Source: Halocafeteria seosinensis
Lineage: Eukaryota
Reading direction: 5' to 3'
DNA: 43,202 bases
NCBI GenBank assembly: GCA_001687465.1
Contig: LVLI01000118.1
Location: forward strand, 124,001-167,202
Positions 5,596-43,202 of this stretch are shown one piece after another. Position numbers and translations under genes: made by a program. The notes under the pieces were generated by a model, which was given only the letters and a program-made list of their open reading frames with translations, was not told the DNA's origin and searched no databases. Position 1 is the first letter of the stretch, and the number at the start of each line of letters is the position of its first letter.

Positions 5596-5940
5596 TAGCA
5601 AAGATATATAGGGGTCAAAGAGCAGTGTGTAGCTCTCCAGGAAAGACACTTCAGGTTTAGTTCGTCTTTCACTTAAAAGATCATTCCATCTTTTTATTTC
5701 TGTGGACGGGACTCACTCTTTTAATCAATGTAGACACTTAATGTACTTATTAGTTTTGCTACAATCTTCGAAACACCTTGTGAAGCTTCTATGAGAAATC
5801 CGCTCCGCATTGGCCTTGACTCACACGTTCGCGAAATCGCTCCTGATCTGGCCTCGGGTGGCTTCAGCGCTACAGATTGCGTTGTGCAACATCTTTCGAG
5901 TGTATAGGAGCGAGTTACCTTTACGCTAAAGCCAAAGGGA

Positions 5941-7992: not shown

Positions 7993-10900
7993 CTAGGTTT
8001 CCTCTCCCGAATCAGCTGGTTGCTGCTCTGACTGCTCTTGTTTTCTCCAGCTTCTGGGGGTGTAAAGCATGGCAGAAGAGCGATCCTCCTCTTTGTCGGA
8101 AGCAGAACTGCTTTTCCTCGCAGTGTTATGGGACGTCATCTCTTCCGCTTCGGCGTCATCTTCACGTGCCCTCAGTAGCATCTGGTGTACCCGGTGTCTA
8201 AGAGAGCTGATCTTGGAGTACGAAATATCGTAAGAAGCTGCACGGTGGCGGATTCGTCGGAAAGCTTGGAGCCATATTCTGTACGGCTGTTTTAACGCTG
8301 TTTGCGAAGTCAGGGTACTAGGGTCGAACTCTTGAGAAGCAGTCGTTTCCAATATGGCCACAGGTAATTTTGTGGCCAGGTACTGAATTGAATTCATGAA
8401 ATCACGAGACAACAGTTCAGCCGTTGCTTCAGAGAGTATGGCCAACGCGGTTCCATGAACGGCAGGCCATCCCACAACAATCCACCAGTCCCATATCAGG
8501 GTTGCGATTGACATGGGGAACGTCGCCAAGCTACTAAATTGAGTCATGAACCATCTACTTGCGCCGTACATATCCGGGGATATTTCGTACTTCATGAAAT
8601 GGTCGTGTAGATGGGGCAACCTTGATTGACGCAGGTACTTATGAATTTCGAAGTGCTCCTCAAGCCCCTCAAGGTCCGAAGAGAACAAGGACTGTAAGTT
8701 GTAATCCTTGTCATGCATTAGCCACGCTAGCAGGTGAAAGGATAAAGTCTCATCACCTTCGAACACCCTCAACAGCATTGCGGCGATATAGTTCATCCCC
8801 TGACAGTATGATATCGATGGGTCCCAAACTGCATAGGCAAGTAATACATTCCTCAAGCTCTTGCGGAGACGGATAACCTCGGGTGCGGCACCAGTGTCCA
8901 ACGGACGACTATCTCTTCCCAAGTCTTTCGATGGCCCACCGCCCTTCCGGGACGCACAAACGGAGTCCATCAACGTCTCAACATCATAGTCAACGCTTTC
9001 AGACTCAACTTGGCTTTTACCCCTCTCTACATGCGACTCAATTTCATCAATGGCGTGCTCGGCAAGATCACCGAATGTTCGATCCACATCAGTGGTTATT
9101 TGTATTTGTGGACAGCACTTCTGCTCCACAAATGTTCTAACGTTGCTTTCTAACTTCTTCTCACTTCCTGTTGCTGTTACATAGTCGGACAGCCAAGGAG
9201 GAAGTGGCAGGCATATACCGGCACATCCATTGATCCATTTAGGCAGTTCGTAAGTGTCGGCGTTCATGTTCGCAGCCCACTGATCCCGATAAATGCCACT
9301 GACAGTCTCTGCCACTTCCTTCAAGGACGTTTGGGCTTCGACGGTACATCTCTCTAGGTCGTTCCGGTAAGACGCGAGTGTATCCTTCGTCTTCTTAATC
9401 TGGTCTTGCAATCTGTTCCATTTTTCAGTTGCTTCAGGGGACAAAGTAAATCCTTGGCTGGTCATCTCCTTTGCTTTTAGGTTGACACTCCCGCTACTCC
9501 GAGATCGAGTAATACTGTTAAGGTCTTCACAGTTATTCCCATTTGCCACACCACTGGCCTTATCATTGTCGTCTGCGAAAGCGTCGGCGACTTCTTCCGA
9601 GCTAGATCCTTTTCTGTGAAACTGCTTCTTACGCAATTTCGAGGAAACATGCTTTAAAGCACTTTTGAATTTAGAACGACCCTTAGCAGAAAGTTCCTTT
9701 TTCGATTTATCATCAGCCGATGCTTTTGAGCTCGCGGCGACAGCTGCCTCGGCAGCGGCCACCATGTCATTCCCAGCCGAACCGGAAGAGCGCCCAAGAC
9801 CTCCACCGTACACTCGACTGGATGAAGCAAAGAGCATCCTATCATTGGGTGTCTGAGGAGTAGCATCAGGTTTAGGTGGCTTGCTCCTTGGGCCTTTGGA
9901 ATTTCCACTACGTCCCAATATACTGTGAAGTATAGCAGCCTCTTCCTTCTCCAATTCGACCAGGGAATGACCCGCAGAATCAATCTCAGCTCGGAGATGC
10001 TCCATTCGCGCTTGTTTCTGCGCACTGATTAGACATTGTTCGTATACACATCCAGGAGCTCCAGCTGAACTAACTTCATCTACTTCTTTCTGAATAGATT
10101 TGAGGGATGGTATGTTACGCCACCTGACTAATATTTGGGTGGAATGCAAGACGTCACACTTTGGGCTCTTGACATTCATGGTCTTCATTTCGGGCTCAGG
10201 GTAACTTAACGAAGTATTCCTCGCAGGTCGCGGACACGAAGCAGCGTCGCCCAGCTCGCTCTTTATAGCAGCGGAATGAGGTGCTTTCGCAGGCCGTCCA
10301 GAGTTTGCCATCATAATCCATAAAATTTGACGGAAACTTTGGGGGACTTCCGCTTCTGACACCAGCGTTTCCCAAAGCAAAACATCATCACGCAAAGGTA
10401 GCAGATGCCAGCAGGAACATACACGCATCATTCCAATGATCTCGTCCACCCGCAAATACGTACACACCTTACTCAACAGTACATGATCATAAAGTGGGTG
10501 TAAAGTGCCCCTACACCGTAGGACCCGCTTCAGTGATCGTCTTTGATTGATTCGAAGCCGCGTAGTACTGGTCTGTCTGCCACCTCCATCTTGAGCCACA
10601 ACAGCACTAAGGGTGTGGTCTCCTCTAAATCTAATTTGTCGAGATCGACTTGCCGATGTCCCCTGTAGCAGCGACTTATTTTCGGATACTCCCTGGACTC
10701 CACTTGTTTCAGCGACAGTAGAAGTCTGCGTTGCTGAAGCACCTTTCCTGAGACCACGAATAGTTTTCTCAAGCTCCTGAAATTGTTTTATCAAAGAAAC
10801 ATGTAAATACAGTAATTAGCGGAAAGCGATTTCCCAAGTAGTTCAACGCTTACTTCGTTCTTCTCCTGGAGGTTGGCCAAAGATACCTTCGCTTGTACTA

Positions 10901-19934: not shown

Positions 19935-20869
19935 TTTTCTCCACTCTCAACTGTGTATATAGGCTATCCAAGATGAGGCATGCACCTCAAGCAGGCAAAA
20001 GCAGGGCGGGACAGAAATGTACCACGCTCTCAGAGAACAAAAAAGGTCCGGTAAGCGAGGAGTGCGGCACAGGAAGGATCTGCGTCGAACACGCTGGAAA
20101 CGTACGAAAGCCGCCAATCAAAACTAAGCGAGAAGGACAGCACCGGATCTTCAACACACACCTATTCTTGTATTGTCCCTCCAGACACACCATTATGCGG
20201 GCGCTTTGACCGGTTAAACAGAGAGTACAATCTTTTTGCGCACTTTCAAGGCAGCCAACTTCAACGTCGGTCCTGGAGAAGAGTCTGGCGTATTCATTCA
20301 TTCCCAAGGGAGCATTAAGTCAGTGTACATGTCCACATATACCCTACCATACTGCATTGTGCTCATTCCTTAAGGAGTATGAAGTTGGTGTACTTGCACC
20401 GTGCGAGATGCGAAGCCATCTCAGTCGAATGCTTGAACAAGTAGGGCGGTTGTATAAACAAAATTTAACAGCCTGTGCAACATTACCTTTTCACTACCAT
20501 CACCAGGTGTGCGTAGGGAGGTGCAGCTTACGTTTATCGCCCTTCTCTCTCCAGTTTGTGTTCGCGCGCGCCCCCACTAGCCGCCAACTACGTTGGTGTA
20601 CGAGGGAAACCTCCGGTTACACCTTTGGCCGACAACTGTTCTAAGATACTGGCGCGATCAACAGCCGAACTACTGTGTGGTGTATTGTTTTGGCTTGGGA
20701 GACGTCTTGACTTCCTCATTCTTGCCAAACACTTTGGCCTTCGTTGGCGTCCGAAGCTACGCAACGCAATTCTGCCGCGTCCTGCTTTACTGTTAGCTTT
20801 GGGAATGAGTAAGAAAAACTTATGCGTCCTTGTATCAAAGTTGCATCAGGAATCAGGAATGGCGCAAAC

Positions 20870-21200
20870 TCAACTGCGTTGACTACCGAGCTCTTGGAAG
20901 AAGCGCAAAGTGTTAAAGGTTGACTCCATCGGAGTCCGGAGGTCTTACCCCAAAAGACTCCCACACTTAATGGTCATACCCGCTGCGTCACTACATGTAG
21001 TGACGACCACTCAACTGCGTTGGCCTCTCAACAAGCATGAAGATCTCCAGACTTCAGTACCCTCCGCTCAACTACCCGACGCGGTTTCTTCCCACAGCGT
21101 GTGAGTCCGGAAGTCCTGGCCCAAGACGCTCTCAGACTTAATAGTCATACCGCTGCATCAGCAATGACAAGCGCCCAACTGCGTTGGCCTCTCAATAAAA
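20870..21200. repeat. Diverged tandem repeat, period about 170 bp
   Basis: caactgcgttggcctctcaa occurs at about 21012 and 21176, with a partial copy at 20871. acttaat(g/a)gtcatacc(c)gctgc(g/a)tca occurs at about 20965 and 21136. Confidence 0.6.
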
Positions 21201-23866: not shown

Positions 23867-24086
23867 AGTGCATGGATATCCAGGTGTTATGAATAGGACA
23901 CTGGATATCAACGGAGGGAGGTGTTTGTTTTCCGGACGGTCCAGACGGTCCTGTCGGAGGCACACTGGGGGGCACAGTGCCCGGGCACTGTCCCACCTCC
24001 CACCGGGGACCCACCCACTCCCATCCCACGGGCTTAGCGCCCGGATCTCCGGGCTTGGAGCCCGGTCAACAAACAACCACCTAGAC

Positions 24087-25700
24087 TAGGGTGGTTGGAA
24101 CACGTTCCCGGTGTGCTCTCCGTTCCCGGGAACTGTTTCAAAAAAAAAGCTTGAAAAATATACGTGTGAGTGTGGATGGTTTGCACGAGTAAAATAATGG
24201 AGATACTCAAATTTCGCGTTTTTTTGACAATCGTCTTCATCATTATTTTCGTCAGACTTCGTATCTGAATCAGAAGACTTGTGTGTTCGTTGTTTCGTTT
24301 CAAACACGGCTTGTAGCTGTGTGTTAGGACTGGAAGACCGAAGAGCTACTCTGGCTGATTGTCAAATCGAGTTGATTCGCATGGGATACGATCTTGCTGA
24401 GGTAACCGAGACGGACAATGGAGTCGACTCTGAAGAAACGAAGGCTTTCAAGCAGCATGTTACGACGTCATTCAACTTGAGATACAGCGAGTATAGTGAT
24501 CAGCTTTACACAGCTGCGCTGTCACTACATCCTCAGTGCTCGACATTGGCCTTTTCAGGTGTGCATACTGCCGAGTCTATTGGCGCAACACTCCTCGAAT
24601 TTGCAGAGCAGCTTAACCTGGTCATCAATCCAGCTCAGGGGGTAAAATTCTTCGCCGAATACGAGAGATTCCTTGACGTCGAAGCTCCATATGACAAACG
24701 GATTGACAAGACAATCGAGCCGGCAAAATGGTGGAGCAAAGTTGACAGTTCGTACGACAAACTGAAGGAAGTCGCTCTACGACTCTTCAGTATTTCTCCA
24801 GGCTCTGCGGATGTCGAGAGACTCTTCTCCAATCTGTCAGCTGCAAACACGAGCAGGAGCAACCTAAGTGTCAATAGTCTGGCGAAAACGGCTAACATGA
24901 AAACATACTTCCAGTCGGATACACGTCAGCGTACTGTTGAAAATGAACCACGCAGAAAGCCCTTATGGCTCCGCGAGCACCGCCGGGATAGAAACCTCGG
25001 TCTGCAAATCGCTGTCATCGATGTGCTCAGCCTGCGAGAAGATGACAAAGATGACTGGGATACAATTGGAGCAGCTGAGGCTGCAGACTTGAGTGATTTC
25101 GAGGGCTTCGAAGATACCTCCGGTAAAGAGGATGAGACAAAGCTCTCTGAGGAAGATGTAGACCTGGTGGACGACTTTGAGCTAGACGTGGAAGAGTTCT
25201 TCGACGGCATTGAAGATTTGCTCGAAGAAGCTAGTGAATGCCAAGCGTCGAATCTAGATGGAATCAAGGTTCTCAATGACTTCATTGTTGGCGATAATGA
25301 GCTTCATCGCTCCATGTAGTTCTTGGCTCCACGACCGGCGGTCGAACGAAAGAGGAGGGAACCGAAATGTTCGCCCCAACCTGACGCAAATTAGAGGGGG
25401 AAGATCAATGCGAAAGAGCTCGCAAAACAGTATCTTTCCCAAAGGAACGTTGCATAGCTCTGCGAGAATACACATGTGGAATGTAAAGTAATAAGGTTTG
25501 CAGGTATTCGTTCCCGGGAACGTCGAGTGGGATCCGGGCACGGGAACGGGAAAGTCGGGAAAATCGTCTGTTCCAGCCAGCGGCTTGTAAGAACCCTGGC
25601 TAGCTTTGACCCCTCCCCCCAAGCCAACCAACTGCCGTTCCTGTTCCGGACAAACCCCGGTCCGGGGGCGGGGAATGGAACCCGCCGACGCAATGGACCA
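24087..25700 (+). mobile_element. Internally deleted hAT-superfamily DNA transposon; right end uncertain
   Basis: Begins TAGGGTGGTTGG. gttcccgg(gaac) subterminal motifs occur at about 24104-24133 and 25509-25660 and flank a hAT dimerisation-domain ORF. Confidence 0.55.
24279..25319 (+). pseudogene. 5'-truncated hAT transposase (C-terminal dimerisation domain plus acidic tail)
   Basis: Motifs AALSLHP and PAKWW....YDKLKEVALRLFSISPGSADVERLFS. The N-terminal DDE residues and BED finger are absent. Confidence 0.85.
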
Positions 25701-25723
25701 GTTGTACTTTTGTAGTTCACTCA

Positions 25724-26080
25724 GGTGGTCGCCTACCGGCGATTCAATTTGGGGTTTCAAGCGACCTTCAATTGGCGACTAAAATGGAGTATTTAGGCGA
25801 CCACCCCTACCAATGACACCTTATGACACTTTTTCTGTCATGTATGACAGATTTAAAATCGTACTTTCAAAAGTGTCATAACCCTTACACCACTATACCA
25901 CCAAATCCAGTAATATAAGGCTTTGTTGAAAATCGTATGACACTTATGACAGAAATGACAGAAAATTTTGGGGGTTGGTTGATAATGAAAAATAAAAAAT
26001 AAAAATTAAGAAAAATAATTATTAATATCAACTGACCCCTGAAAATTTCTGTCATTTCTGTCATAAGTGTCATACGATTT
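25724..26080. repeat. GTCGCC block plus ATGACA/TGTCAT iteron array with a perfect 35-bp inverted repeat
   Basis: 12-bp IR at 25724-25735/25794-25805. About 11 ATGACA/TGTCAT hexamers. 35-bp perfect IR at 25930-25964/26046-26080 around an 81-bp AT-rich spacer. Related to the block at 41978-42464. Confidence 0.9.
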
Positions 26081-26259
26081 CCCGATGAAACCAACAGGTT
26101 GAAGAGGGTCCTACCAGGAATTCGTGTGCTGCAAACACAATTCTCGTCCATATCTCACGCTCATATTACACCCCGAATAGCTAAGCGCACTATCAATCTA
26201 GTACTTACACGACACTGAATGTATTGTCAGTGGACATTATGTTATGGGCATCCGAATAC

Positions 26260-26915
26260 CCCCACAAAAGCGTGCACCTTGTCGCAAAAAACGACGGTCG
26301 GAAAAAGCTCCAAATACACACGCTTAACGTCGATATTCCCTGGATCTTTTGTGGGCCCTACCGTGCAGTGAATGTACTTACCAGTCGGACCTCGAAAACG
26401 TGGCCTGCGATAGTATTCCGGTCAGTGAGAGCCTTTGAAATCCGGCGATATTTTTACCCCAGCTGCAAGTTCCCAGACAAGCGCCCGCAAAAGCGCGCAC
26501 ATTTTTTGGATACACCACAGAGTGCCGCCGAGCCATAAATGTGGGGTTTCTTTCAACTGATCACATTAGAATTGAACAATGCATCATATCATCTTATCCT
26601 CGTTGAGATCAATTCCTCCTATATTGGTCAATAGGTCCTCCAAAGTGGGCAGCCAAAAGCGGACACGCACCAGCAAAAGCGCACCAACCCACCCTCAAAA
26701 GCGTGCGTTTCAGCTTCACAAATGCAGAAATCCGCAAAAGGGCGCCCCTGTTTTGGCAAGCTCTTATTTCACCATTCGTGCTCGGAATTGTATATTTCTT
26801 GTTTTGAATGATAGTAAAACAGTAAAAGTGCTATATGGACTATATCTCTTTTTTTTAATGCAGCCGAAAGCAACGGAATATGCCAACAAAGTCACCCGCC
26901 AAAGCGCACCCAGCT
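26260..26915. repeat. Dispersed AAAAGCGCAC-like motifs, possible subterminal region of the MULE-like element
   Basis: Motifs aaaagcgtgcac, aaaagcgcgcac, aaaagcggacac, aaaagcgcacc, aaaagcgtgcg and aaagcgcacc recur between about 26266 and 26911. Confidence 0.4.
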
Positions 26916-27120
26916 CAGGAAAATTGCCCCATGTTGTTCGCGGCTATATCTCGATATTGGATGGACGTATCCAGATTCCAAGACTAGATTTGGAATCTTT
27001 GTTAAAATGCGGCTCAGAAATGGTATCGCATGTTACATGAAGTGACCTAGGGATGGAAATACAATTTTACCCGTGGGTAAAATATATTTTTCCCGATCTG
27101 GGCGATTTGTCCCGCTCACC

Positions 27121-27828
27121 TTACCAGCCATGGAGGTTCCAAGGACCGTCTGCAAAATTATGGCTTTCTTGAATCAGCCAATGTTTGACGACTTCCAGCT
27201 CCACATGCCGTCTTGCTGGATGTTTACTGTCGTAACTGGTAATACTCCTGCGTGGAATGTTGATCACGATGACGGCCCAATGGACTCTCTGGGGAAAGAT
27301 TGGGATAATTATTTTCTCCGCTGGCATGTGAAGCCGGAACCAATTCCCGACGTTTGCGTAGCAGAACTCAGTTTGGTTGTAATACAGGCTGTCCATGAAT
27401 CCCGTTCCAAAACTCACGACGCTATATCCCAAAGACCGGGCTTCCGCAGATACCATAAGGAAGGCCGCGTCTAGGAAGAAGTTGGTAACCCACAAGTTAT
27501 CCTGGCATGCACGAAGATCAACAAAACGCAGGCCTGCTTCTCTAACTATGGTCTGTCGTCTCCCCATTCGCTGGTACAAAAACACCCTCGCCGACCGGAG
27601 ACGCTGCTCCTCAGCGTTTTCCCGTCGGAGCTGAGGCAGTTGATTCACGGTACTTAAGAGTTGATGGTATTCCTGTAGACTGAGTCGAGGCTCACTGGAC
27701 AGAACAACATGCAGATGATCATTTAAGCCTATTTTTTGTAATATGGATGCCCGGTGATTGTTTCGGATCGAGCATCCCCCTGATCGAAACGCAGCTCTGC
27801 CCGTTCGATACAGTGAAGTGGTTTCCAC
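27121..27828 (-). pseudogene. Ulp1/C48 (SUMO-protease-like) peptidase fragment of a Mutator-like element
   Basis: Motifs WVTNFFLDA and KIIIPIFPQRVHWAVIVINIPRRSITSYDS carry the catalytic His and Asp. The downstream Q..DCG catalytic Cys motif was not found. Out of frame with the upstream ORF. Confidence 0.75.
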
Positions 27829-28909
27829 CGTTGAACTTGAAGTTTGACTGTAGCAGGCGTAGGTCGCCGATTCGATACTGCTACAGTATTAGGACTTCCA
27901 TTATTTACTGAGTTGTTATGACTGAGAGTGGTATAACAATCCCGATCTGTACCCGTACCTTCGGCTTCGCCACGTGCTGAACGGCGCTGTGGACGATTTC
28001 CATTATTTACGGAGTTATTATGACTGAGAGTGGTATAACAATCCTGAACTGTACCCGTAGCTTCGCTTTCACCGTGAGGAGAACGGCGCTGTGGATCGCT
28101 GCTTATCGATTCGCTGGCTACGTGAACATCTGGTACTGTACGAGTACCACAATACAAATCTGACTCCGACGTAGGATGCTCTTGTGGAGTATCACTTCCA
28201 ACGACGTACGCGGCATCTGTAGAAGTTAAGGATTCTGAAACAGCCAAAGAACTACGAGTGGTGCTACTGGTGGTACATCCCTGATTACCTCCAGTCAGTG
28301 CACCCAGCATCTGCTTGTTGTGTCGGCCTTCAGCTGTCCCTTGTTCGCTCGGATAGGGATCATCGGTGCATGATTGTCTCCTCCTACGTGATTGGGAACG
28401 ATTTTGCGCTTCCTCAACCAGTACCTGTGTCCGCCGTTCAATGATGCCCAATTCTCCGAGGATTTCCTTTTGGTCCTCGCAACGGGCAACACGGTTAACA
28501 TAATCGTCTACATGCTGCAGATGTTTTCCAGTCGTTTGTCTATCGCGGCGTTTATGAGATCGCCTGGAAGACGTCCTGGGATTTGACGATTCGGTTCCTC
28601 TTGCTTGCCTGCGGAAGAACGTGTCGGGGATTGCGTGGATGGCATTATGGGGTACTGACAAGCCTTCGTTGTTGGAGCGACGTTGCTCTCCAACAGAACC
28701 ACAAATGTTCGCCCGTTCCACGATCTCCGGCCGTTTATATTGATCCGGTATGCTCCGGAAGAATTCCTCATTCTGCAGCTCTGTTGCTTCCAGCAGTTTC
28801 CTTGTTACCTGAGAGATGGATACCTTCTTAATGTTCCCAAGATGCTTTTTTTGAAAGTCGTTATTCCACGACTCAACCCGGGCGGTGGTGGTAGGTTGGG
28901 ACACAAGTC
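27729..28909 (-). pseudogene. C-terminal part of a MULE-type transposase plus disordered linker, 5'-truncated
   Basis: TTTARVESWNNDFQ resembles the TTNxxESxN motif carrying the catalytic Glu of MULE transposases. It is preceded by a splice acceptor (ttctgtcag). There is an internal 102-bp duplication at about 27899-28092, and the ORF is adjacent to a Ulp1 domain. Confidence 0.6.
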
Positions 28910-28943
28910 CTGACAGAACAAGTTAGAACTCTCTTTCTATTCC

Positions 28944-29318
28944 TTAAGGAATTTCATCCTGATCCACAAATAAGGAATTTTTTAAATCACCAAAACATTT
29001 AATTATATTACTAATTTTTTGGGATTCTCGTGGTTGAGTGTGTGGTGGTGCGTTAAGAGCAAACAAACCTTTAGGGGTAAAAAGAAAAACATCAGGTAAG
29101 TTATCAAAGAGTAATTGTATACGGCTTAATAGTACCAAATTATCATCAGTAATTTGCTTTTCATACCTTTTAATTTTATCTAATTTCTCACCCCATTCAT
29201 AACGGTGATTTGGACATAGAAATTGATAATCAGAATTTAGTAAAGTGTCTAAACAATTGGGGGGATGTAATACTACTATATTATGCTTAATACTATACAA
29301 AAAATTATCTATGTTCAT
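28944..29318 (-). CDS. Hypothetical viral protein
   Basis: Intact AT-rich ORF. The likely start MNIDNF directly follows TATATA and the element's 38-bp motif. Confidence 0.6.
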   Translation of the reverse strand: MNIDNFLYSIKHNIVVLHPPNCLDTLLNSDYQFLCPNHRYEWGEKLDKIKRYEKQITDDNLVLLSRIQLLFDNLPDVFLFTPKGLFALNAPPHTQPRESQKISNIIKCFGDLKNSLFVDQDEIP

Positions 29319-29357
29319 TATATAAAATGTTTTTGAAAACATTTTAAATCTTAAAAC

Positions 29358-29433
29358 ACAGATGCTTTAAAAACCATCTGTAATACTTCAAACTTACAGA
29401 TGCTTTGAAAACCATCTGTATTACTTCAAACTT
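29358..29433 (-). promoter_or_regulatory. Two tandem copies of a 38-bp promoter/operator-like motif
   Basis: acagatgcttt(a/g)aaaaccatctgta(a/t)tacttcaaactt occurs twice. Related copies lie at 31578-31614, 31638-31660 and 32615-32648, always upstream of ORFs. Confidence 0.7.
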
Positions 29434-29469
29434 AAACTAAATTATAGCATGTGTTTACCGTGGTTTTAA

Positions 29470-29556
29470 GCTTGTAGTCCGAAGCTACAATGACCGAGGC
29501 GTCATTGAGCTTTCGCTTGTAGTCCGACGCTACAATGACCGAGGCGTCATTGAGCT
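29470..29556 (-). terminator. Duplicated 42-bp double-hairpin unit at the 3' end of a gene, putative transcript-end signal
   Basis: gcttgtagtccga(a/c)gctacaatgaccgaggcgtcattgagct occurs at 29470-29511 and 29515-29556. Stems are ttgtag/ctacaa and caatgac/gtcattg. It abuts the stop codon of 29555..29962. Confidence 0.5.
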
Positions 29557-29974: not shown

Positions 29975-30850
29975 TTATATGTGAATATTTTGTTTTCCTA
30001 ATCTTTCTTTTGTTTTTTGATTTAATAAGTCTACAGTTTTCTTTTCTAGATCAGATATTTCTTTTAAACTTGAATTATCTAGAATTTGGTTCAATTGTTT
30101 GACAAGTTTTTTATTTTTAGGATATTGTCCGAAACTAATCCAGTACCATTTTTTCACTCCCTCTAAAGCTGACTTAAGGTGAGAAGACCTTATACCGATT
30201 TTTTCTTGCTCTAACAAAGTTATTAACACATCTAAAGATTCCCTAATTTGATGTAAAGAACCTAAAGCTGGATCGTTTAAGACTTCCAATATTTGGGAGT
30301 TTTCTTTATTTTGTTTTTGTTCTAACATATAAAATCTCTTTAATGCTTTATAATACTGTTTTTCTTCTATTTTTTCGTTATAATCCTCTTTTAAAGTCGT
30401 CTTAATATTTTTGGTTGATTTACCTGTATGAAAGTCAATTACATTAGTAAACTCATGAAACTGTCCCGTACTAGGTAGAAAACCTATTAAGTCTATCTTA
30501 AATTTTGATCCTGTATCTTTAATAGCTGTTGTGAATTTTACATTATCTTTTTTACCCCTTATAATATCTTCAGGACTCCATCTTATAGGTTCTCCATTCT
30601 TTTCACCTGCTTTGATATCTGTAATCCAGAGATTGGGTTTCTGTTTTATTTCGTTTATTTTTTCCTTTAGTTGTGTCCAGACTTTTGTAGCTGAAATATT
30701 TTTAGGTATTTTTTCATTCAAATCGTAGTCCATTGTATAAATTAAGTAAGGGTTTTGTTGAGAACCAACTAATTTCGCTTTGTTGGTAAAGCTCAGAAGA
30801 TTCATATAACTTTTCTCCTTAGTGGTCAAAAATAATTTACGTTCTGACAT
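29975..30850 (-). CDS. Putative Pol-beta-superfamily nucleotidyltransferase
   Basis: LVGSQQNPYLIYTMDYDLNE fits hGS-x(9-13)-DhD, and FKIDLI is a candidate third Asp. Helical C-terminus. Likely start MSERKL. Confidence 0.6.
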   Translation of the reverse strand: MSERKLFLTTKEKSYMNLLSFTNKAKLVGSQQNPYLIYTMDYDLNEKIPKNISATKVWTQLKEKINEIKQKPNLWITDIKAGEKNGEPIRWSPEDIIRGKKDNVKFTTAIKDTGSKFKIDLIGFLPSTGQFHEFTNVIDFHTGKSTKNIKTTLKEDYNEKIEEKQYYKALKRFYMLEQKQNKENSQILEVLNDPALGSLHQIRESLDVLITLLEQEKIGIRSSHLKSALEGVKKWYWISFGQYPKNKKLVKQLNQILDNSSLKEISDLEKKTVDLLNQKTKERLGKQNIHI

Positions 30851-30913
30851 TAAATCTTTATAGTTAACTGAAAGAAAAACCATTTTAAACCATATGACTA
30901 TGGTTTCTTAAGC

Positions 30914-31565: not shown

Positions 31566-31693
31566 CCTTATATTATAACAGATGCTTTTAAAAACCATCT
31601 GTATTACTTCAAACGCAATAAAGAATTTGTTTCTTTCTTTTGAAGTTTAAGATGGTTTTCTTTTCTTATATTATAAGAAAGAAAAGCATATTA

Positions 31694-32611
31694 ATGAATA
31701 AAGCTTTGAATATTATCGCACAATTAACACAAGGCGTAGATGATGCCACTTCACTGAGAAAAAAGCCTAAAAAAGAAGGTAAAAAGCAGAAAAAGGAGGA
31801 AGGTAAGAATAATGATAGATTTGTAGGTCGGGAAAGTAAACCTGATTTTGATAGTAATAGCTGTAAAACTCCCAGTGATGAGGTTTATTTTCAAATTGCT
31901 AAAGCTTCCTATCAACTTCCTAAAGAAAGACCTAAACTAATAAATCGTACTTATGAATATCAAAAAGACCTTTCCACTAAAGCTGTTTGTCTCTATATTG
32001 ATAAGTTAAATAATTCGGCTGTGCTGGGATTCAGAGGAACCAACGTAAGTGACCCAATGGATTTAGTAGCCGATACTAAAATCGCTTTCAATAAATTAAA
32101 TGAAACTCCACGCTTTCAAGATGATGCTCAAACAGTTAGCAAAATTTTGGAAAGTTTTAAAGATAAGGGTTTTTGCTTTTTCTCCGTGGGTCATTCACTG
32201 GGCAACGCCGTTCAGCTACAAATAGATCGTGAATTTGGTCGCTTTATTAAAAGTGGTAGAGGATACAACGGTGCTCTTCAGCCTAAGGATGTGCTAGAAT
32301 CACCGAAAAAGTTTAATTATTGGTATATCAAGGGTGATCCCTTGTATCAATATTCGGGTCGTATGTTAAGAAGAAACTTATCTGTTTTTCCTAGAGTTTC
32401 TAAGAAATCAGTTCAAAATCATGCTTTGGATAATTTCCAAGGTTTGACTAAGCAAGATACTTTAAAGAAAGGGGGTGCTAAACCTTCAAATAAACCTCCC
32501 ACTAAAAAGGATTTAACACAAATTGGATTCTGTTCTAATAATCAGAAAAAGATAAATGGCTTGCCTAAACCAGTCTATGATTTTCAAAAGACATTAACAC
32601 AAGAAAATTGA
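31694..32611 (+). CDS. Class 3 lipase-like alpha/beta hydrolase
   Basis: Motifs VLGFRGT...DLVAD, nucleophile elbow VGHSLG, GDP and NHALDNF give a Ser-Asp-His triad. Likely start MNKALN. Confidence 0.9.
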   Translation: MNKALNIIAQLTQGVDDATSLRKKPKKEGKKQKKEEGKNNDRFVGRESKPDFDSNSCKTPSDEVYFQIAKASYQLPKERPKLINRTYEYQKDLSTKAVCLYIDKLNNSAVLGFRGTNVSDPMDLVADTKIAFNKLNETPRFQDDAQTVSKILESFKDKGFCFFSVGHSLGNAVQLQIDREFGRFIKSGRGYNGALQPKDVLESPKKFNYWYIKGDPLYQYSGRMLRRNLSVFPRVSKKSVQNHALDNFQGLTKQDTLKKGGAKPSNKPPTKKDLTQIGFCSNNQKKINGLPKPVYDFQKTLTQEN

Positions 32612-32663: not shown

Positions 32664-35600
32664 ATGAGTGTATCTCAGATTATTAACCAAAGTAATAATA
32701 AGATCTATAAACACCTAATACCTACCAAACATTCCTCACATGTTTCTAATATTACGGTGTCTGCTAGCAATGCTCCTACTTGTATAAAAAATTCGGCGGA
32801 TTTTGTCTGTGATGGAACAGCTGATCAGGATGAAATCAATCAAGCAATTCAAAGTGCTAATGACGGTGATCGCATTATGTTATCACAAGGCGAATTTGTT
32901 ATTGACGACCAAATTCAAATAAATACGTCAGTTAGTTTTTTGGGTGTTAATCGGGAGAATACTACTATTAAAGTAGATGATAACGCAACAAGTGATAATC
33001 ATTGGTTAAACGTCACAGCCAATGGTTTACTCATTCAGGATATGACCTTAGACGGTAATAATGGAAACCGAGGAGTTGATAATATTAATGATGTTCTTCT
33101 CCGTTTTCAAGGTGTTAACTTTTCTACTATTCAAAGATTGAGGCTCCTTTCAACCTCATCTTATGAAATTTATGTTGAGAATTGTAGTCATTTACTACTA
33201 ACCCAATTATATGTTGACAATACTGATTCTCAAAAAGGTTCCGCGGTTTATTTTAAAAGCTTGAATGCTACCTCGAATGTCTCTTTAACTCATTGCTATT
33301 TTGACATGTTAAACCGAACATGTATTGAAACCGATAGTGTAAACTCTCTAAGCATAGATAATTGCGAGGTACACAATGGTAATCGTCCTGTATCGTGTTC
33401 ACCTACGGATTCTAATGTTAGAGTTAGTAACTGTCTCTTTGATGGATGTACCAACATTCATTATTCAGGCAATAGAGGTGTGTTTTCCAATAATCAATTT
33501 ATTGGAACTAATGGGGCAATAACAATTTTCAACAATAGTGGAACTGGTAACGAAGATTACATCAATGGTTTATATTCTGAAAATGATCAGAGCGTAGTAG
33601 GAGTCATTCACATTGACGGAGGGTCTCATAATTCTGTATCTGATATAGAAATTATTAATCCAAATCACACAGCTATTGTGGTTGACAAAGATAATGGTAG
33701 CGGTTTCCCTTCTGTTGTTGATATAAATTCTGTTAAGGTTGATGAGACTGATAATTCAGCCTTAGACATTAAAAATTTAACTACAGGTTCTTTTTCCGAT
33801 ATCCTCCTCACTAGTGCTAGTAGTGCTACAGCTGTTTCTACTCAAAGCAGTTCAAGATTGAGATTTGATGGATTCCTATTGGTAGATGTTAACAAAGGTT
33901 TTAATGTGGATAGCACAACCAATAGTCAGTTTGGTGATATTAGGATCAAAAATTGTACTCAAGGTGGATTTGACCTTCAGAACAGTTCCACTGGTAATCA
34001 GTTTGCTAATATTAACGTTGATGGAGCTCTTAGAGGATTTTTCCTAACAAATACCGCCAACGATAATACATTTAGTCAAATTTCAATGTATAGTTGTACA
34101 CAAAACTGTATCCAAAATAGCGGAACTGAAAATAATTTTTCGGGTATATTTTGTTATAATACTGGTAGTGGAACTCCAACTGATAACAGGGGTGTTATAG
34201 AAGATGAAGCGAATGGATCCAATACTTGGCGAAATATTAGTATTTTACAAATCAGTTCCTCCTATGATTTTAAACCTCAGGGAGCTAATGGCTTTTTCCT
34301 AGGTTCAAATAACTCAACTCTTGAAAATATTTACATTGATGCCGATGTTACTGGAACTTTTGACCGTTCAGAGACACAAGGAGTACAAGCCCCTCTTTTA
34401 TCTGGTATTTACATAACCACCAATCAAGATTGTAACATATTTGGAGCTAAAATTTATAGGTGTCTAGAATTCGGAGTTCAGGTAGGAGTTGCTACCAAAA
34501 ACTTAAATTTAGAATCATCTGTTTTTCAGGCAAACACTAACGACGCTAATGAAGCTCTTGGCTTATATTTGAATGGTAATGGAACGCCTATTGAAAATAT
34601 GATTATTAAAAGTTGTGTATCCCAGAGCAATGACAAACAATTCAAAGTTGGTGGTAGTAATGCTGATTATGATGTTAGCGGAAGTACTGGGATTCAACAA
34701 CCATCAGAATCTGTATTGTCTAGTCTTCGTCACGGTGCTAGAGCTCACTATAATTTCAGTGGTTCAAATCCCCACAATGATAAAATTGGAACTTATGATG
34801 CTACCTTAGGTAGTCAAAGTTTAGTTTCAGGTAAAATAGGACAAGGTATTCAAAACGCATCCGGTTCTGATTATGTCTTAAATGGGGGTGGTTCACGTAT
34901 AAGTGGAAGTCTAATTACTGACCCTTTCACAATTAGTTTCTGGTATCAAACCCCTGATGTTAGTTCTTCAGCTATTGTTTATGCTACTGGTTTAACAGGT
35001 GATGCTTTTCGTCTTTCTCAAAGTAATGATAAACTTTCCCTCGCATCTGGCAATGGTTCGGATGATACAACCTCATTTTTGGAAACAGGTGTCTTTTATT
35101 TACTTACTGTTACTTACGACGGTTCCGATGCTCGTCTTTATGTAAATGGTGAGTTTAAGATTAGTCACAGTTTTTCAAGTTATGAATCAGCCGGTGGAGC
35201 ATTTTTGAACAGTACACTTAATTGGATCGTTGATGAAGCTTTAACATTTGAACGAGCCATTTCAAACGGTGAAATTAACATGATATATAATGGTGGTTCT
35301 GGAACACAAGCTCATATTAATCACGATTGGCATACTAGACCCGCTCAAAGTAATGTTCATATGAAAAGTAACCGAATTACTAACCTTGCTGACCCTACTA
35401 GTACCCAAGATGCTGTTTCAAGAAATTACTTAGAAGCTGGTATTATGGTTAATGATATTGATATGAATTCAAACCAGATTAATAACCTAAGTGACCCAAC
35501 TAGTGCTTCAGATGCTGTCTCCAGAAATTATTTAGAAGCTGGTAATATGGCTAATGCTCTAGATATGAATTCCAATCAAATTAATAATCTTTCTTCAGCT

Positions 35601-37427
35601 ACATCCGGAACTGATGCTATTAATAGGAATGATGGTGATTCTAGATTCTTAAGACGAGATGGACAAAATACTATGGATGGAACACTTAGTTTTTCAACTG
35701 GTAACAGTATCACTTTAAATGATACAGATATGGATGCTGGTTCTAATCAAATTAATAATTTGTCTGATCCTACTTCAGCTCAAGACGCTGTTTCCAGAAA
35801 TTATTTAGAAGCTGGTAATATGGCTAATGCTCTGGATATGAATAGCAACCAAATTAATAACTTATCTTCAGCTACAAGCGGAAGTGATGCCATTAATAGA
35901 AATGATGGTGATAATAGATTTCTCCGTCGGGATGGTAATAATACTATGGATGGAACACTTAGTTTTTCAGCTGGAAATAGTATTACCCTAAATGACACAG
36001 ATATGGACGCTGGTTCTAATCAAATTAATAATTTGTCTGATCCAACTTCAGCTCAAGACGCTGTTTCCAGAAATTATTTAGAAGCTGGTAATATGGCTAA
36101 TGCTCTTGATATGAATTCTAATCAAATTAATAACCTTGGTGAACCTGTTCAAAGTGGGGATGCTGTAACAAAAAACTATACGGATGCTCTTTCGGGTATT
36201 CCGCAATTAAGACGGGGTGCTAGAGCCTATTATAGTTTTGATGGAACTAATTCCTATGCCGATTCCATCGGAACGCATGACGGAACAAATAATGGAACAT
36301 CTGTTGTGTCCGGTAAAATTGGGCAAGCCATTGCTTTCACGGCGTCGGATCATGTTGATATCGGTGATGCGATGTCTTTTGGATCAGGTGATTTTTGTAT
36401 TTCCTGTTGGTTCTATCCCACAACGTCTTCACCTAATGCTCAGTATCTTTATACATCGGCGAAGGATTCTAATGGAGATAAGTTTGAATTAAAAATGCAG
36501 ACCGATCAATTAATATTACTGACAAGTGTAAATTCAAATTCATCGATATCCGCTAAATCTTCAGCATTATCCCTCAACACCTACCATCATGTGTTGTTAA
36601 ACAGAACGGGCTCGGATTGGAAACTTTATGTTGACAGGAGTCTGGAAATAGATGCCACATTAAGTTCAGGAAGTATTTCATCTGGATCGGATACAAGTTC
36701 GTTGGGACGTAATTTTAGTGATTCCATCGCAAGCAGTGGAGAACTGGATGAAGTGGCTTGTTGGGATCGTGTTTTATCGGCCGAAGAAATCAAATATATT
36801 TACAACAACGGAGCGGGTACCAATGATTTCCAATCCTTCGGGTGGTATTCCCTTCCGGCTCAATCCAATGTGGATCTCAATAGTCACAATATCGTCAATG
36901 TAGCCGACCCGACATCCTCAGATATGGCCGTCAATAGGAACTATCTTCACGGGGGCAACATGGCCAAGTCGCTTGACATGAATAGTAATACCATAATCAA
37001 TGTAGCCGACCCGACATCCTCGGATATGGCCGTGAATAGGAATTATCTTCACGGAGGCAACATGGCGAATTCGCTTGACATGAACGATCAAGAAGTGGTT
37101 AGCGTCGCCACGGTGACTTCCAATGCCGTGACCATTAATGACGATTCCTTCCATTCCTTCACACCAACCCATGAAGTGGGTAAGTTTCTTATCCGAACCA
37201 CTGCGTCCAACGGGGCTATGTTAGAAATACTGTACAATGTTTCAGGGGATAATATTTCCCAAACCAATGTACTAAGAAGTACAATGTTTGAAACGGCCGT
37301 CAATCAAACGCCTTCAGGGACGACCGGTACAGACGGCAAAATCACAGTCTCAACCGGCTCATCCCAGTTACACATTGAAAACCGCTTGGGGTCTTCCGAA
37401 ACCTTTACCTTTTTATTGTTAGGCTAA
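32664..37427 (+). CDS. Large fibre/tailspike-like protein: pectin-lyase-type beta-helix, two LamG/concanavalin-like domains and stalk repeats
   Basis: ADFVCDGTADQDEINQAI..IMLSQGEF is followed by parallel beta-helix repeats. Two LamG-like modules (GKIGQ, FTISFW/FCISCW, LYVNG/LYVD, DE..F/W.R.S..EI..IYN). About nine DM.SN.I.NL.DPTS..DAV.RNY repeats. Confidence 0.85.
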   Translation: MSVSQIINQSNNKIYKHLIPTKHSSHVSNITVSASNAPTCIKNSADFVCDGTADQDEINQAIQSANDGDRIMLSQGEFVIDDQIQINTSVSFLGVNRENTTIKVDDNATSDNHWLNVTANGLLIQDMTLDGNNGNRGVDNINDVLLRFQGVNFSTIQRLRLLSTSSYEIYVENCSHLLLTQLYVDNTDSQKGSAVYFKSLNATSNVSLTHCYFDMLNRTCIETDSVNSLSIDNCEVHNGNRPVSCSPTDSNVRVSNCLFDGCTNIHYSGNRGVFSNNQFIGTNGAITIFNNSGTGNEDYINGLYSENDQSVVGVIHIDGGSHNSVSDIEIINPNHTAIVVDKDNGSGFPSVVDINSVKVDETDNSALDIKNLTTGSFSDILLTSASSATAVSTQSSSRLRFDGFLLVDVNKGFNVDSTTNSQFGDIRIKNCTQGGFDLQNSSTGNQFANINVDGALRGFFLTNTANDNTFSQISMYSCTQNCIQNSGTENNFSGIFCYNTGSGTPTDNRGVIEDEANGSNTWRNISILQISSSYDFKPQGANGFFLGSNNSTLENIYIDADVTGTFDRSETQGVQAPLLSGIYITTNQDCNIFGAKIYRCLEFGVQVGVATKNLNLESSVFQANTNDANEALGLYLNGNGTPIENMIIKSCVSQSNDKQFKVGGSNADYDVSGSTGIQQPSESVLSSLRHGARAHYNFSGSNPHNDKIGTYDATLGSQSLVSGKIGQGIQNASGSDYVLNGGGSRISGSLITDPFTISFWYQTPDVSSSAIVYATGLTGDAFRLSQSNDKLSLASGNGSDDTTSFLETGVFYLLTVTYDGSDARLYVNGEFKISHSFSSYESAGGAFLNSTLNWIVDEALTFERAISNGEINMIYNGGSGTQAHINHDWHTRPAQSNVHMKSNRITNLADPTSTQDAVSRNYLEAGIMVNDIDMNSNQINNLSDPTSASDAVSRNYLEAGNMANALDMNSNQINNLSSATSGTDAINRNDGDSRFLRRDGQNTMDGTLSFSTGNSITLNDTDMDAGSNQINNLSDPTSAQDAVSRNYLEAGNMANALDMNSNQINNLSSATSGSDAINRNDGDNRFLRRDGNNTMDGTLSFSAGNSITLNDTDMDAGSNQINNLSDPTSAQDAVSRNYLEAGNMANALDMNSNQINNLGEPVQSGDAVTKNYTDALSGIPQLRRGARAYYSFDGTNSYADSIGTHDGTNNGTSVVSGKIGQAIAFTASDHVDIGDAMSFGSGDFCISCWFYPTTSSPNAQYLYTSAKDSNGDKFELKMQTDQLILLTSVNSNSSISAKSSALSLNTYHHVLLNRTGSDWKLYVDRSLEIDATLSSGSISSGSDTSSLGRNFSDSIASSGELDEVACWDRVLSAEEIKYIYNNGAGTNDFQSFGWYSLPAQSNVDLNSHNIVNVADPTSSDMAVNRNYLHGGNMAKSLDMNSNTIINVADPTSSDMAVNRNYLHGGNMANSLDMNDQEVVSVATVTSNAVTINDDSFHSFTPTHEVGKFLIRTTASNGAMLEILYNVSGDNISQTNVLRSTMFETAVNQTPSGTTGTDGKITVSTGSSQLHIENRLGSSETFTFLLLG
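35511..36135 (+). repeat. 273-bp (91-aa) tandem coding repeat, about 2.3 copies
   Basis: Units start at 35511, 35784 and 36057 (DAVSRNYLEAGNMANALDMNSNQINNL...). Confidence 0.9.
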
Positions 37428-39243: not shown

Positions 39244-39534
39244 ATGGAGATTGTCAGTTATGTTTTCATTGGGCTGTTTGGAAGTGTCTCAGCCGTAGGA
39301 ATCCCGCTTTTCTATCGGTATTGGCGACGATCCAATTGCTCATCCAGTTGTACCAACAGTGATTTGGTCACCACCATTTGCCGGTTCAGTACCGAGGTTC
39401 GGAAAAATGGCAATTCTAATATAGAGCAAAATGGTGAATCGCCAAAAAATCAAGGAACTAAAGCAGATAGCCCTCAGCGAATCCCAGATACAAAACAACA
39501 CGACCAAAAACATTCCAATCCTGACGTACAATGA
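39244..39534 (+). CDS. Small membrane protein with an N-terminal TM helix and a Cys motif
   Basis: Hydrophobic IVSYVFIGLFGSVSAVGIPLFY followed by RRSNCSSSC. Overlaps the protease gene. Confidence 0.6.
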   Translation: MEIVSYVFIGLFGSVSAVGIPLFYRYWRRSNCSSSCTNSDLVTTICRFSTEVRKNGNSNIEQNGESPKNQGTKADSPQRIPDTKQHDQKHSNPDVQ

Positions 39535-40015
39535 AATTTATGGCAAGTCACTGGATCGCTTGACCCAAAATGGGGCGTGTATTTTGTTGTATCTGATTGA
39601 AGAGAACTATGGCCATTGGGTTTCAATATGCCGGATCCCTAAAGAGAATGAAGCCGATCATTTGATCTACTTTGATTCCTACGGCGAATATCCGGATGAA
39701 CCCCTGACATGGGCGACGCCTGAGAAAAACGAAGAACTGGGGCAGAGTCGCCCGTATTTGTTGGAAAAAATCGTAAAAAACCCTGACAGGTATGAGTATT
39801 ATTCTAATCCCTTTCCATTCCAAAACGAAGATAATCTGGATATCCAAAGTTGCGGTCGTCATCAGATTTGCTTTATTCACTATTGTTGGAATGCTGATGA
39901 CCCAAGTCTGGTGGGTTACAAGGAATGGCTGGATGGTATCAAAGAGCAAACCGGTTTGGACACTTATGACCAAGCGGTCACTCTTCTGACCGACCATATT
40001 GATGAACCGGCCTAA
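39431..40015 (+). CDS. Virophage/PLV-type maturation cysteine protease (adenain-like, clan CE)
   Basis: His-Asp-Gln-Cys order: CILLY..NYGHWV, IYFDSYG.YPD, FQ.....IQSCGRH. 194 aa. Confidence 0.9.
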   Translation: MVNRQKIKELKQIALSESQIQNNTTKNIPILTYNEIYGKSLDRLTQNGACILLYLIEENYGHWVSICRIPKENEADHLIYFDSYGEYPDEPLTWATPEKNEELGQSRPYLLEKIVKNPDRYEYYSNPFPFQNEDNLDIQSCGRHQICFIHYCWNADDPSLVGYKEWLDGIKEQTGLDTYDQAVTLLTDHIDEPA

Positions 40016-40042: not shown

Positions 40043-40711
40043 TCAATCGGTTTGTATAAAAGCATATTTAAATTGATGGGTGTTGCTGTCAAAACTACAC
40101 TCTATGTCAAACAGTTCTCCTCCTAGTTTATCGTTTTCATCTTCTCGCATCCATTTTGCTAATTTCCTCCAAAATTCCTTCTGATCTCGTATTATATGAT
40201 TCTTCTTTTTGATCCATTCCTCCACTGTGTAATTCCCTTTAAAACTATTAAACAGTTGAAGGCAGTCATCTGATACTTTTTCAATGACAAACGTATGTGC
40301 TTCCCCCTTCGATTCATACCGTTTAATCCGACATAAAGCAATCCCACTTGAACAATTGTCCATATTCTTTCGCAGTGAATTGAATATCGCTGTATTGATA
40401 TTTTTGTCTTGATGTGTTGGCTGGTATAAGTTTAGGGATTGCTGTACCCGATCCATCGTCTCCGGATTACAGTCGGGGTCGTAATGTTCCGGATGAAACT
40501 CTTTCTTATCTGTCAAATGACAACACGCTAAAATCCAATACAGGAGATGACCCGTATGGACACAATATGTTGGATCTGTATAAGCCTCTCCTTCCTGTAA
40601 CCCCTCGGGGAGTGATCGGAATATCTTCCACATCGCATAATTGACGTTAAACTTACCGTGTGGGGTACAAAGTTTCTTTATGACTTGGACGGAAAAGAGG
40701 TTCTGTCTCAT
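40043..40711 (-). CDS. Hypothetical protein with a papain-like Cys-His-Asn arrangement
   Basis: YCVHTGHLL ... AHTFVIEK ... LFNSFKGNYTVEEW. Likely start MRQNLF after TATAGA. Confidence 0.6.
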   Translation of the reverse strand: MRQNLFSVQVIKKLCTPHGKFNVNYAMWKIFRSLPEGLQEGEAYTDPTYCVHTGHLLYWILACCHLTDKKEFHPEHYDPDCNPETMDRVQQSLNLYQPTHQDKNINTAIFNSLRKNMDNCSSGIALCRIKRYESKGEAHTFVIEKVSDDCLQLFNSFKGNYTVEEWIKKKNHIIRDQKEFWRKLAKWMREDENDKLGGELFDIECSFDSNTHQFKYAFIQTD

Positions 40712-41977: not shown

Positions 41978-42310
41978 ATGACACTTTTCTGTCATGGATG
42001 ACAGAAATGAAAATCGTACTTTCATTTCTGTCATAACCCCTATACCTCTATACCACCGTCGTTCCCTGTAAATTTGTACTTTGTTAATAATCGTATGACA
42101 CTTATGACAGAAATGACAGAAATTTTTGGAGGTAGGTTGTTATTAATCATTAATAAAATTATTTTTTAATTTTCTTAAACCTCAACCGGCTGAAACCGAA
42201 GTGTCATCTGTCATTTCTGTCATAGTTTTCTGTCATCCCACTAAAAGACCGAATTGAAGGGTCGTTTAGAGGGGGGTCGGGTTATGACAGAAATGACACT
42301 TTTCTGTCAT
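41978..42310. repeat. ATGACA/TGTCAT iteron array (right copy)
   Basis: About 14 hexamers. 34 bp (42089-42122) are identical to 25931-25964. Confidence 0.9.
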
Positions 42311-42335
42311 AAGCCTAATCGCCCATTGATGGTTG

Positions 42336-42464
42336 CCTGAATACCCAAATAGAGTCGCCCATTAATGGGTCACCTGAATATTCCAATTGGTGGTCGCCTG
42401 AATACCCAAATAGAGTCGCCCATTAATGGGTCGCCTGAATATTCCAAGTGAGGGTCGCTTGAAA
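42336..42464. repeat. 61-bp tandem repeat with GTCGCC motifs and cccattaatggg palindromes
   Basis: cctgaatacccaaatagagtcgcccattaatgggtc(a/g)cctgaatattccaa occurs at 42336 and 42397. Confidence 0.9.
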
Positions 42465-42475
42465 AATATAATTAT

Positions 42476-42710
42476 AAAAACAAAATGTAAATTTTAAAAA
42501 TGTAAATATAAAAACAAAAATGTAAATTTTAAAAATGTAAATATAAAAACAAAAATGTAAATATAAAAACAAAAAATGTAAATAAAATTGGCCAAATTGT
42601 AAAATTGGCAAATATAGCCAATTTTGGCCGAATTTTTAATCTAATAAAAATCGTAATAAAGTCCAATTTTAAAATCCGGTAAAAATAGCCAATTTTGGCC
42701 GATTTTTGGA
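42476..42710. repeat. AT-rich subterminal tandem repeats
   Basis: Repeated aaaatgtaaat(at/tt)/aaaaac units at 42476-42587, followed by atagccaattttggccga twice. Confidence 0.85.
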
Positions 42711-42717
42711 AAATCGT

Positions 42718-42767
42718 ATCACCCGCGAAAATCGTAAAACAATTGTTTTACGATTTTCGCGGGTGAT
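42718..42767. repeat. Perfect 50-bp palindrome at the end of the viral segment (hairpin-telomere-like)
   Basis: atcacccgcgaaaatcgtaaaacaa|ttgttttacgattttcgcgggtgat, with no spacer and no mismatch. Confidence 0.97.
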
Positions 42768-42855
42768 CGAAGTGGACGACCAGTTCGTGATCCACTTCCT
42801 CCGTCTGACACGTCACTACTCCATCTGTGTGTGTATTGTTAATGATCTTGGAATA

Positions 42856-43202
42856 CTACTGAACAAAGGTAGAAGCATAAACAGCTACACCACCTCTCTC
42901 TCTGGGTAAGACTAACTGAAGCCATCTGCACAGTAAGTTGACATTGGACCGCATAAGCCGACAAGACAACCCTTCACGAAGACATTCCACATATTTCGTA
43001 GGATGAGATACATGAAGAGAAGCGGGCCGATGTTTAAGCTGAGATAGGAAATCCACCGCATCCTCTCCTATACCACCATATGATTGAAACGCAAAGGGGA
43101 TTAACTTCTTTCCAAGTTCTTGACAGACTGCCCCATATTTATGAACTTTCATCCGTTCCACCACTCGAGTAGCTGCGGCAGTACGAAGGTTTTGTTGGGT
43201 AC
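42856..43202 (-). mobile_element. 3' end of an RLE-type (CRE/R2-like) non-LTR retrotransposon ORF, continuing beyond the window
   Basis: AAATRVVERMKVHKYGAVC...LIPFAFQSYGGIGEDAVDFL...LSCRLMRSN is the typical restriction-like endonuclease C-terminus (E..K..KY, P.a.es.G.g). Confidence 0.75.

Follow-up and report, generated by a model that had tools for sequence, protein, structure and literature searches.

The question raised by this locus, a stretch of 43,202 nucleotides of Halocafeteria seosinensis contig LVLI01000118.1 (the window), is why virus-like DNA should end against foreign sequence in a perfect palindrome, and what such an end may have done for the virus that carried it. The palindrome is the outer tip of the subterminal repeats of a partial endogenous virophage. 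We consider it probable that this tip is a terminal-repeat unit of 52 bp lacking its last base, that the tip of the free virus acts as a hairpin primer, and that the end was inserted through a cut made by an integrase.

The palindrome occupies positions 42718-42767, with no strand assigned, and in an inverted-repeat search of the window its arms (42718-42742 and 42743-42767) proved to be 25 nt each, 100% complementary and separated by a spacer of 0 nt, confirming the exact 25+25 bp symmetry noted in a sequence-only reading of this DNA. No other perfect palindrome in the window is as long, the runner-up having 10-bp arms, and the 25+25 bp one stands far above chance: shuffling the window 200 times in blocks of 500 bp gave arms of at most 12 bp, and the analytic expectation for a 25+25 bp palindrome at the local composition is about 1e-9 per window. 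The symmetry is therefore exact and non-random. Pairing of the arms ends at position 26, with 29 aligned columns if one gap is allowed, and as single-stranded DNA the palindrome folds at -27 kcal/mol (z -10.35). Its GC content is 0.40, and its arm reuses an AAAATCG motif of the adjoining subterminal block.

What the palindrome terminates is a block that begins near 29 kb and has a GC content of 0.38, as against 0.484 over the host-like positions 1-25000. On the plus strand at 39431-40015 this block encodes a virophage-type maturation cysteine protease of 194 aa, with 1096 relatives at E<=0.001 that include proteins of virophage contigs; a locus search with the single protein returned no relative, an alignment-based search did find relatives, and the PDB held no sequence match of note. 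The protease alignments supplied a comparison set of 126 loci, made up of the best 80 of 536 from IMG/VR and 46 metagenome loci. Three further genes are shared with such loci. A 302-aa protein (29975-30883, minus strand) has tblastn matches in 16 of the 80 loci and is 30% identical to a protein of locus L051; it carries a nucleotidyltransferase-like motif seen by eye only, matches no Pfam family, and found no homolog among 1576 candidates, all of its Atlas matches being below 0.9. The product of 31652-32611 (plus strand) is matched in 10 of the 80 loci and in no Pfam family, and is tentatively labelled lipase-like from a motif. The third is a fibre-like protein of 1587 aa (32664-37427, plus strand) with a beta-helix, two LamG domains and internal repeats (Pfam PF13385, PF13229 and PF03906), shared with 2 of the 80 loci. 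None of four window proteins looked up in an exact-match collection was present there. Next to the protease gene lies a 222-aa ORF (40043-40711) with no relative in the 80 virophage loci, whose Cys and His motifs, judged by eye, suggest a papain-like protease.

The protease and the other genes common to virophage loci bear out the earlier description of the element as virophage-like, and its completeness can be judged from the same loci. The major capsid protein of L051, which Pfam names as Sputnik-type and which adjoins a V18/19 penton, was matched in 66 of the 126 protease-relative loci, which are thus for the most part virophages. When 1087 proteins of the 126 loci were compared with the window by reverse tblastn, matches were confined to the protease, 302-aa, lipase-like and fibre genes, and neither this search nor Pfam found a capsid, penton, ATPase, polymerase, helicase, integrase, resolvase or recombinase gene in the window. 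Because the major capsid, penton and ATPase genes were not found, the element is a partial one, a virophage remnant and not a complete member of the group.

Between the genes and the palindrome lies an intact, non-coding, TIR-like subterminal block (41978-42717, no strand assigned), which is multi-copy in sequencing run X1 and consists of a TATGACAGAAATGAC inverted-repeat block at about 41978-42300, 61-bp tandem repeats at 42325-42463 and A-rich repeats of 20 and 35 bp at 42462-42584, leading via AAAATCG motifs into the palindrome. A copy of this block in inverted order, 76-82% identical and devoid of both the A-rich repeats and the palindrome, is found at 25738-26079 (no strand assigned), and is likely a remnant of a left end or of a sister element. 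Around this left remnant, the search for a TSD gave only short matches at chance level, and the 6 nt with which the flank starts at 42768 are not repeated within 24000-29500. The left remnant is flanked by the C-terminal remnant of a hAT transposase (24228-25319) and by a Ulp1-protease ORF (27121-27888), inferred to be Mutator-like, the whole forming a nest of mobile elements.

Whether the palindrome belongs to the element in general was judged from contigs of four of six sequencing runs (X1-X4; X5 and X6, with small shares, were left out), which represent at most 3 samples of 1 study, one of them possibly the source of the window itself. Contigs cross the centre of the palindrome in all four, covering 42717-42757 in X1, X2 and X4 and 42720-42765 in X3. 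Among the pieces listed, which for X1 cover 8 of 21 matching records, the outer end of the arm joins four distinct foreign flanks, two of them common to X1 and X2 and joined at 42717, the other two in X3 and joined at 42716. The flank seen in X4 is probably one of the X3 pair, to judge by its letters: 19 of 30 places match the consensus of that pair, and each of the 11 differences, counted by eye, goes the way that an alphabetical tie-break would. Diverged inner repeats, and not host DNA, may account for some of the four flanks. Record 19 of X3 is short, with a depth about 3 times that of record 18. All four joins to a foreign flank carry a T at 42717, always one base further out than the palindrome of the window; thus the family unit is 26+26 = 52 bp, and the window copy, to which 42717 is to be added, is without one base at its right end. 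This unit was derived from the contig junctions before any comparison with the 2026 preprint considered below. The palindrome caps the subterminal repeats and meets other flanks, and the earlier proposals that it is the terminus of the element and that it recurs at other insertions both hold. It is a real, well-defined viral terminus.

Variation within the palindrome was also recorded. In one X1 contig among the pieces listed, the subterminal block leads into a shorter, 24-bp-type palindrome whose outer arms are unchanged and whose centre measures 2 nt, and hence the sequence of the tip is conserved while the inner length varies; three X1 contigs, again among the pieces listed, carry an extra A within the arm. 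Inside the palindrome lie three junctions, at +4, +4 and +8 nt from its centre, which fit variable opening or later deletion alike. One of the three is record 14 of X2 (200 nt), a lone remnant of 34 bp in which both 6-bp tips are preserved. Of the six letters that follow it, 5 agree with the end of the two-contig consensus that precedes it, the one that differs doing so in the tie-break direction, and the remnant is probably flanked by a 6-bp target duplication, a lead that comes from a consensus of two sequences. Empty cover of 42660-42715 in X3 and X4 was not counted as lone palindromes, because cover there is patchy and some records were filtered. The sequence-only reading had looked to other insertions for variable arm length, and here the result is divided: the outer flanks, all four of them, share one end point, and it is the three inner junctions that vary. 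Taken together, the single outer end point and the lone remnant with its probable duplication favour insertion of the integrase type over joining of a randomly nicked telomere. Target duplications in mavirus and Polintons are 5-6 bp, and in most EMALEs 3-5 bp, according to the text available for PMC8547959.

How such an end might work can be set out as a sequence of steps, all of them conditional. The single-stranded tip would snap back on itself, and its 3' end would prime replication in the manner of parvoviruses and poxviruses. Mavirus has a protein-primed polymerase; a virophage lacking such a polymerase needs another primer, and hairpin priming would replace the protein primer of those relatives that encode pPolB. 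A nick 26 nt from the tip, followed by extension, would regenerate the full duplex palindrome, and an RVE integrase of the kind presumably encoded by complete sister copies would insert the opened end with a short target duplication. At this locus the end would have landed in the 3' UTR of a retroelement, or have been joined to it later by a small deletion, and the left part of the virus would then have been lost. Since reverse complementation leaves a palindrome unchanged, an integrated copy carries its two tips as direct repeats as well, and if these recombined with each other, a lone tip would be left behind. Since the window contains no gene for replication or integration, the priming and integrase steps rest on relatives; on the analysis made here, hairpin-primed replication from the palindromic tip is plausible.

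The sequence-only reading regarded replication as hairpin-ended DNA as a mode undescribed for this group, a claim overtaken by a preprint of 2026 (bioRxiv 10.64898/2026.07.28.741278), from which, in the text available, palindromic virophage ends and the hairpin-priming model are already known. That text describes terminal palindromes in endogenous virophages of subtypes 1, 2, 5 and 6, as well as in PLV subtype 4 of H. seosinensis, lying within TIRs and next to TSDs and measuring 52 nt in subtype 5; it links them to non-pPolB replication genes and RVE integrases, proposes hairpin-primed replication, naming parvoviruses and poxviruses, and calls for experiments; and it reports elements that are partial, LamG proteins, and MULEs and LINEs as neighbours (bioRxiv 10.64898/2026.07.28.741278). 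The element of the window resembles these virophages, as they appear in the available text, in having a palindrome at the TIR tip where it meets the host and in being open to the same hairpin-priming model, as well as in its virophage protease, its LamG protein and the occurrence of partial copies beside DNA transposons and LINEs. With subtype 5 in particular it shares a 52-nt unit (as seen at sister junctions; 50 bp in the window copy), a likeness of length and position. The host GC content given there, about 48%, is like the 0.484 of the host-like DNA of the window; the average of 44% for subtype 5, in contrast, differs from the 38% of the window element, and the window copy is partial, one base short and without its left end. 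The accessible text of the preprint makes no mention of a lone remnant or a short variant such as those seen here. Endogenous virophages of Cafeteria burkhardae (EMALEs and mavirus) are likewise bounded by TIRs, accompanied by TSDs, often truncated and mixed with retrotransposons, but the searched text of PMC8547959 has 0 occurrences of 'palindrom'. In the sources that were available, a literature search found no experimental study of palindromic ends in virophages. Palindromic tips offer a testable answer to the question of how ends are copied in virophages without a protein-primed polymerase, a point already made in the preprint, and the present locus adds small details only: an outer end point that is fixed, a variant that is shorter but has the same tips, and the probable target duplication at a lone remnant.

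A terminal palindrome need not prime anything. It could have arisen by a single fold-back repair and have been inherited since, or it could be a symmetric binding site for an integrase or an initiator, and the available text of the preprint raises an alternative of its own, accidental annealing following single-strand breaks (bioRxiv 10.64898/2026.07.28.741278). The reuse in the arm of a motif that recurs in the subterminal block, and the conservation of the outer tips while the inner length varies, agree with such an origin or role. However, the common form is perfectly symmetric across runs and the variants are either symmetric or retain both tips, and the link to non-pPolB replication genes that the preprint reports for five subtypes points to selection connected with replication, as far as the available text goes (bioRxiv 10.64898/2026.07.28.741278). 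We regard a terminal but non-priming palindrome as unlikely.

Related loci were also searched for palindromes. Above the score cut there were 7, in 6 of the 126 loci, and in 1 of 126 only (L019) was a palindrome terminal at a contig end. L019 is an environmental virophage contig with ATPase, primase-helicase and recombinase-like genes and no pPolB motif in its 20.4 kb; a perfect 62+62 bp palindrome stands at its end (L019:20296-20419, the first 124 bases of IMGVR_UViG_3300032271_000990), and at its other end there is neither a palindrome nor a copy of the near end. This end of L019 speaks for the hairpin-priming reading, and its being the only one of its kind in 126 loci speaks against it. Terminal palindromes such as this can be produced by amplification or assembly. 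In L129 a perfect 102-bp palindrome (5586-5687) lies in non-coding DNA at mid-contig, between two gene blocks of a virophage, and could be an end-to-end junction or an origin. AT-rich hairpins at L081:515-552 and at L124:2324-2405 and 8008-8081 follow the 3' ends of recombinase-like and ATPase genes directly, the position expected of giant-virus-type polyadenylation signals. Searches for the exact arm of the window palindrome gave 0 matches for viral and for metagenome contigs alike. A gapped pattern of the tip matched once among viral contigs; the contig concerned is phage-like, its ORFs show it to be unrelated, and the match was taken as chance.

The replicated or opened hairpin ends of parvoviruses and poxviruses, and the protelomerase targets of N15-like phages, read as palindromes of this size. 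The sequence-only reading accordingly proposed that the free virus is capped by hairpin telomeres, covalently closed by an enzyme of the protelomerase type, and that it integrated when a telomere nicked off-centre was joined to host DNA. The spacerless symmetry of the palindrome is as this proposal would have it, as are the three junctions inside the palindrome, the shorter variant, and the 124-bp terminal fold-back of L019, a contig that has a gene for a tyrosine-recombinase-like protein as well. Unlike those viruses and phages, however, the window has no detected Rep/HUH nuclease, Holliday-junction resolvase or protelomerase. The recombinase-like family, present in 34 of the 126 loci, has weak matches to integrase N-terminal domains, and gave no sign of a protelomerase: the 23 members scanned have no telomere-resolvase match in Pfam, and no PDB match was seen, a weak negative for a family so divergent. 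The variably nicked telomere finds no support either, given the single end point of all four outer flanks and the remnant that seems to carry a 6-bp duplication, and the available text of the preprint places the palindromes next to TSDs (bioRxiv 10.64898/2026.07.28.741278). Closed telomeres of this kind are thus quite unlikely. A wider version is held to be similarly doubtful, namely that non-pPolB virophages are closed, hairpin-ended linear replicons whose own divergent tyrosine recombinase resolves the palindromic junction, and whose tips recombine to excise the virus and leave lone scars; were it true, its traces would be seen in the fold-back end of L019 and in the lone 34-bp remnant.

The reading of the palindrome as a virophage tip must also be set against the DNA on its right, where the sequence-only reading placed host-like sequence. 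The palindrome does adjoin non-viral DNA, but this neighbour, which lies on the minus strand (42766-43202), consists of the 3' part of a non-LTR retroelement. It is interrupted at 42766 and made up of a 3' UTR and a C-terminal ORF (42856-43200, minus strand); the ORF shows 87% identity to the C-terminal end of P0176, a reverse transcriptase protein of 867 aa, and its Cys-His knuckle and nuclease-like motifs presumably mark the retroelement as RLE-type. The retroelement is very high-copy in the runs examined. Palindrome and retroelement overlap by 2 nt, and from their abutment one could take the palindrome for the retroelement's own 3' end or target site. Yet retroelement contigs match from 42766 on and in X1 carry different letters upstream, so that the palindrome interrupts the 3' UTR and is not the natural end of the retroelement; 0 retroelement contigs run into the palindrome in 4 runs, the palindrome joins the viral subterminal block and unrelated flanks instead, and in X1 the depths are about tenfold apart (7190 against 690). 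This origin is largely refuted and very improbable. The upstream continuation of the retroelement has no exact match within the window, and hence the left half of the interrupted retroelement does not lie in it. No contig bridges the junction itself, the depth being 0 at 42760-42764 in X1, X2 and X4 and the X3 piece stopping at 42765; those samples may lack the insertion, or it may have been filtered out or misjoined.

Palindromes trouble assemblers, and an unbridged junction is what a fold-back artefact of assembly or amplification might leave, but crossing of the centre in all four runs and the several independent flanks on the arm argue against it. Mimivirus-type transcripts end at palindromic hairpins, in the available text of PMC4402537, but here the nearest element ORF of at least 80 aa ends 1596 bp from the palindrome, and the candidates in related loci are AT-rich (GC 0.11-0.18) and right behind genes, against a GC of 0.40 for the window palindrome; an artefact or a polyadenylation hairpin of giant-virus type is hardly credible. 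The earlier reading of a viral end therefore survives two refuters that it had named, the contigs of 4 runs indicating that the palindrome is neither the retroelement's own nor an assembly fold-back. Beside the junction, a small stem-loop (42769-42798, z -3.85) lies in the retroelement 3' UTR, and in the host non-coding DNA of the window there is a three-copy 34-nt repeat at 20860-21198 with a perfect palindrome of 20 bp at 20986-21005.
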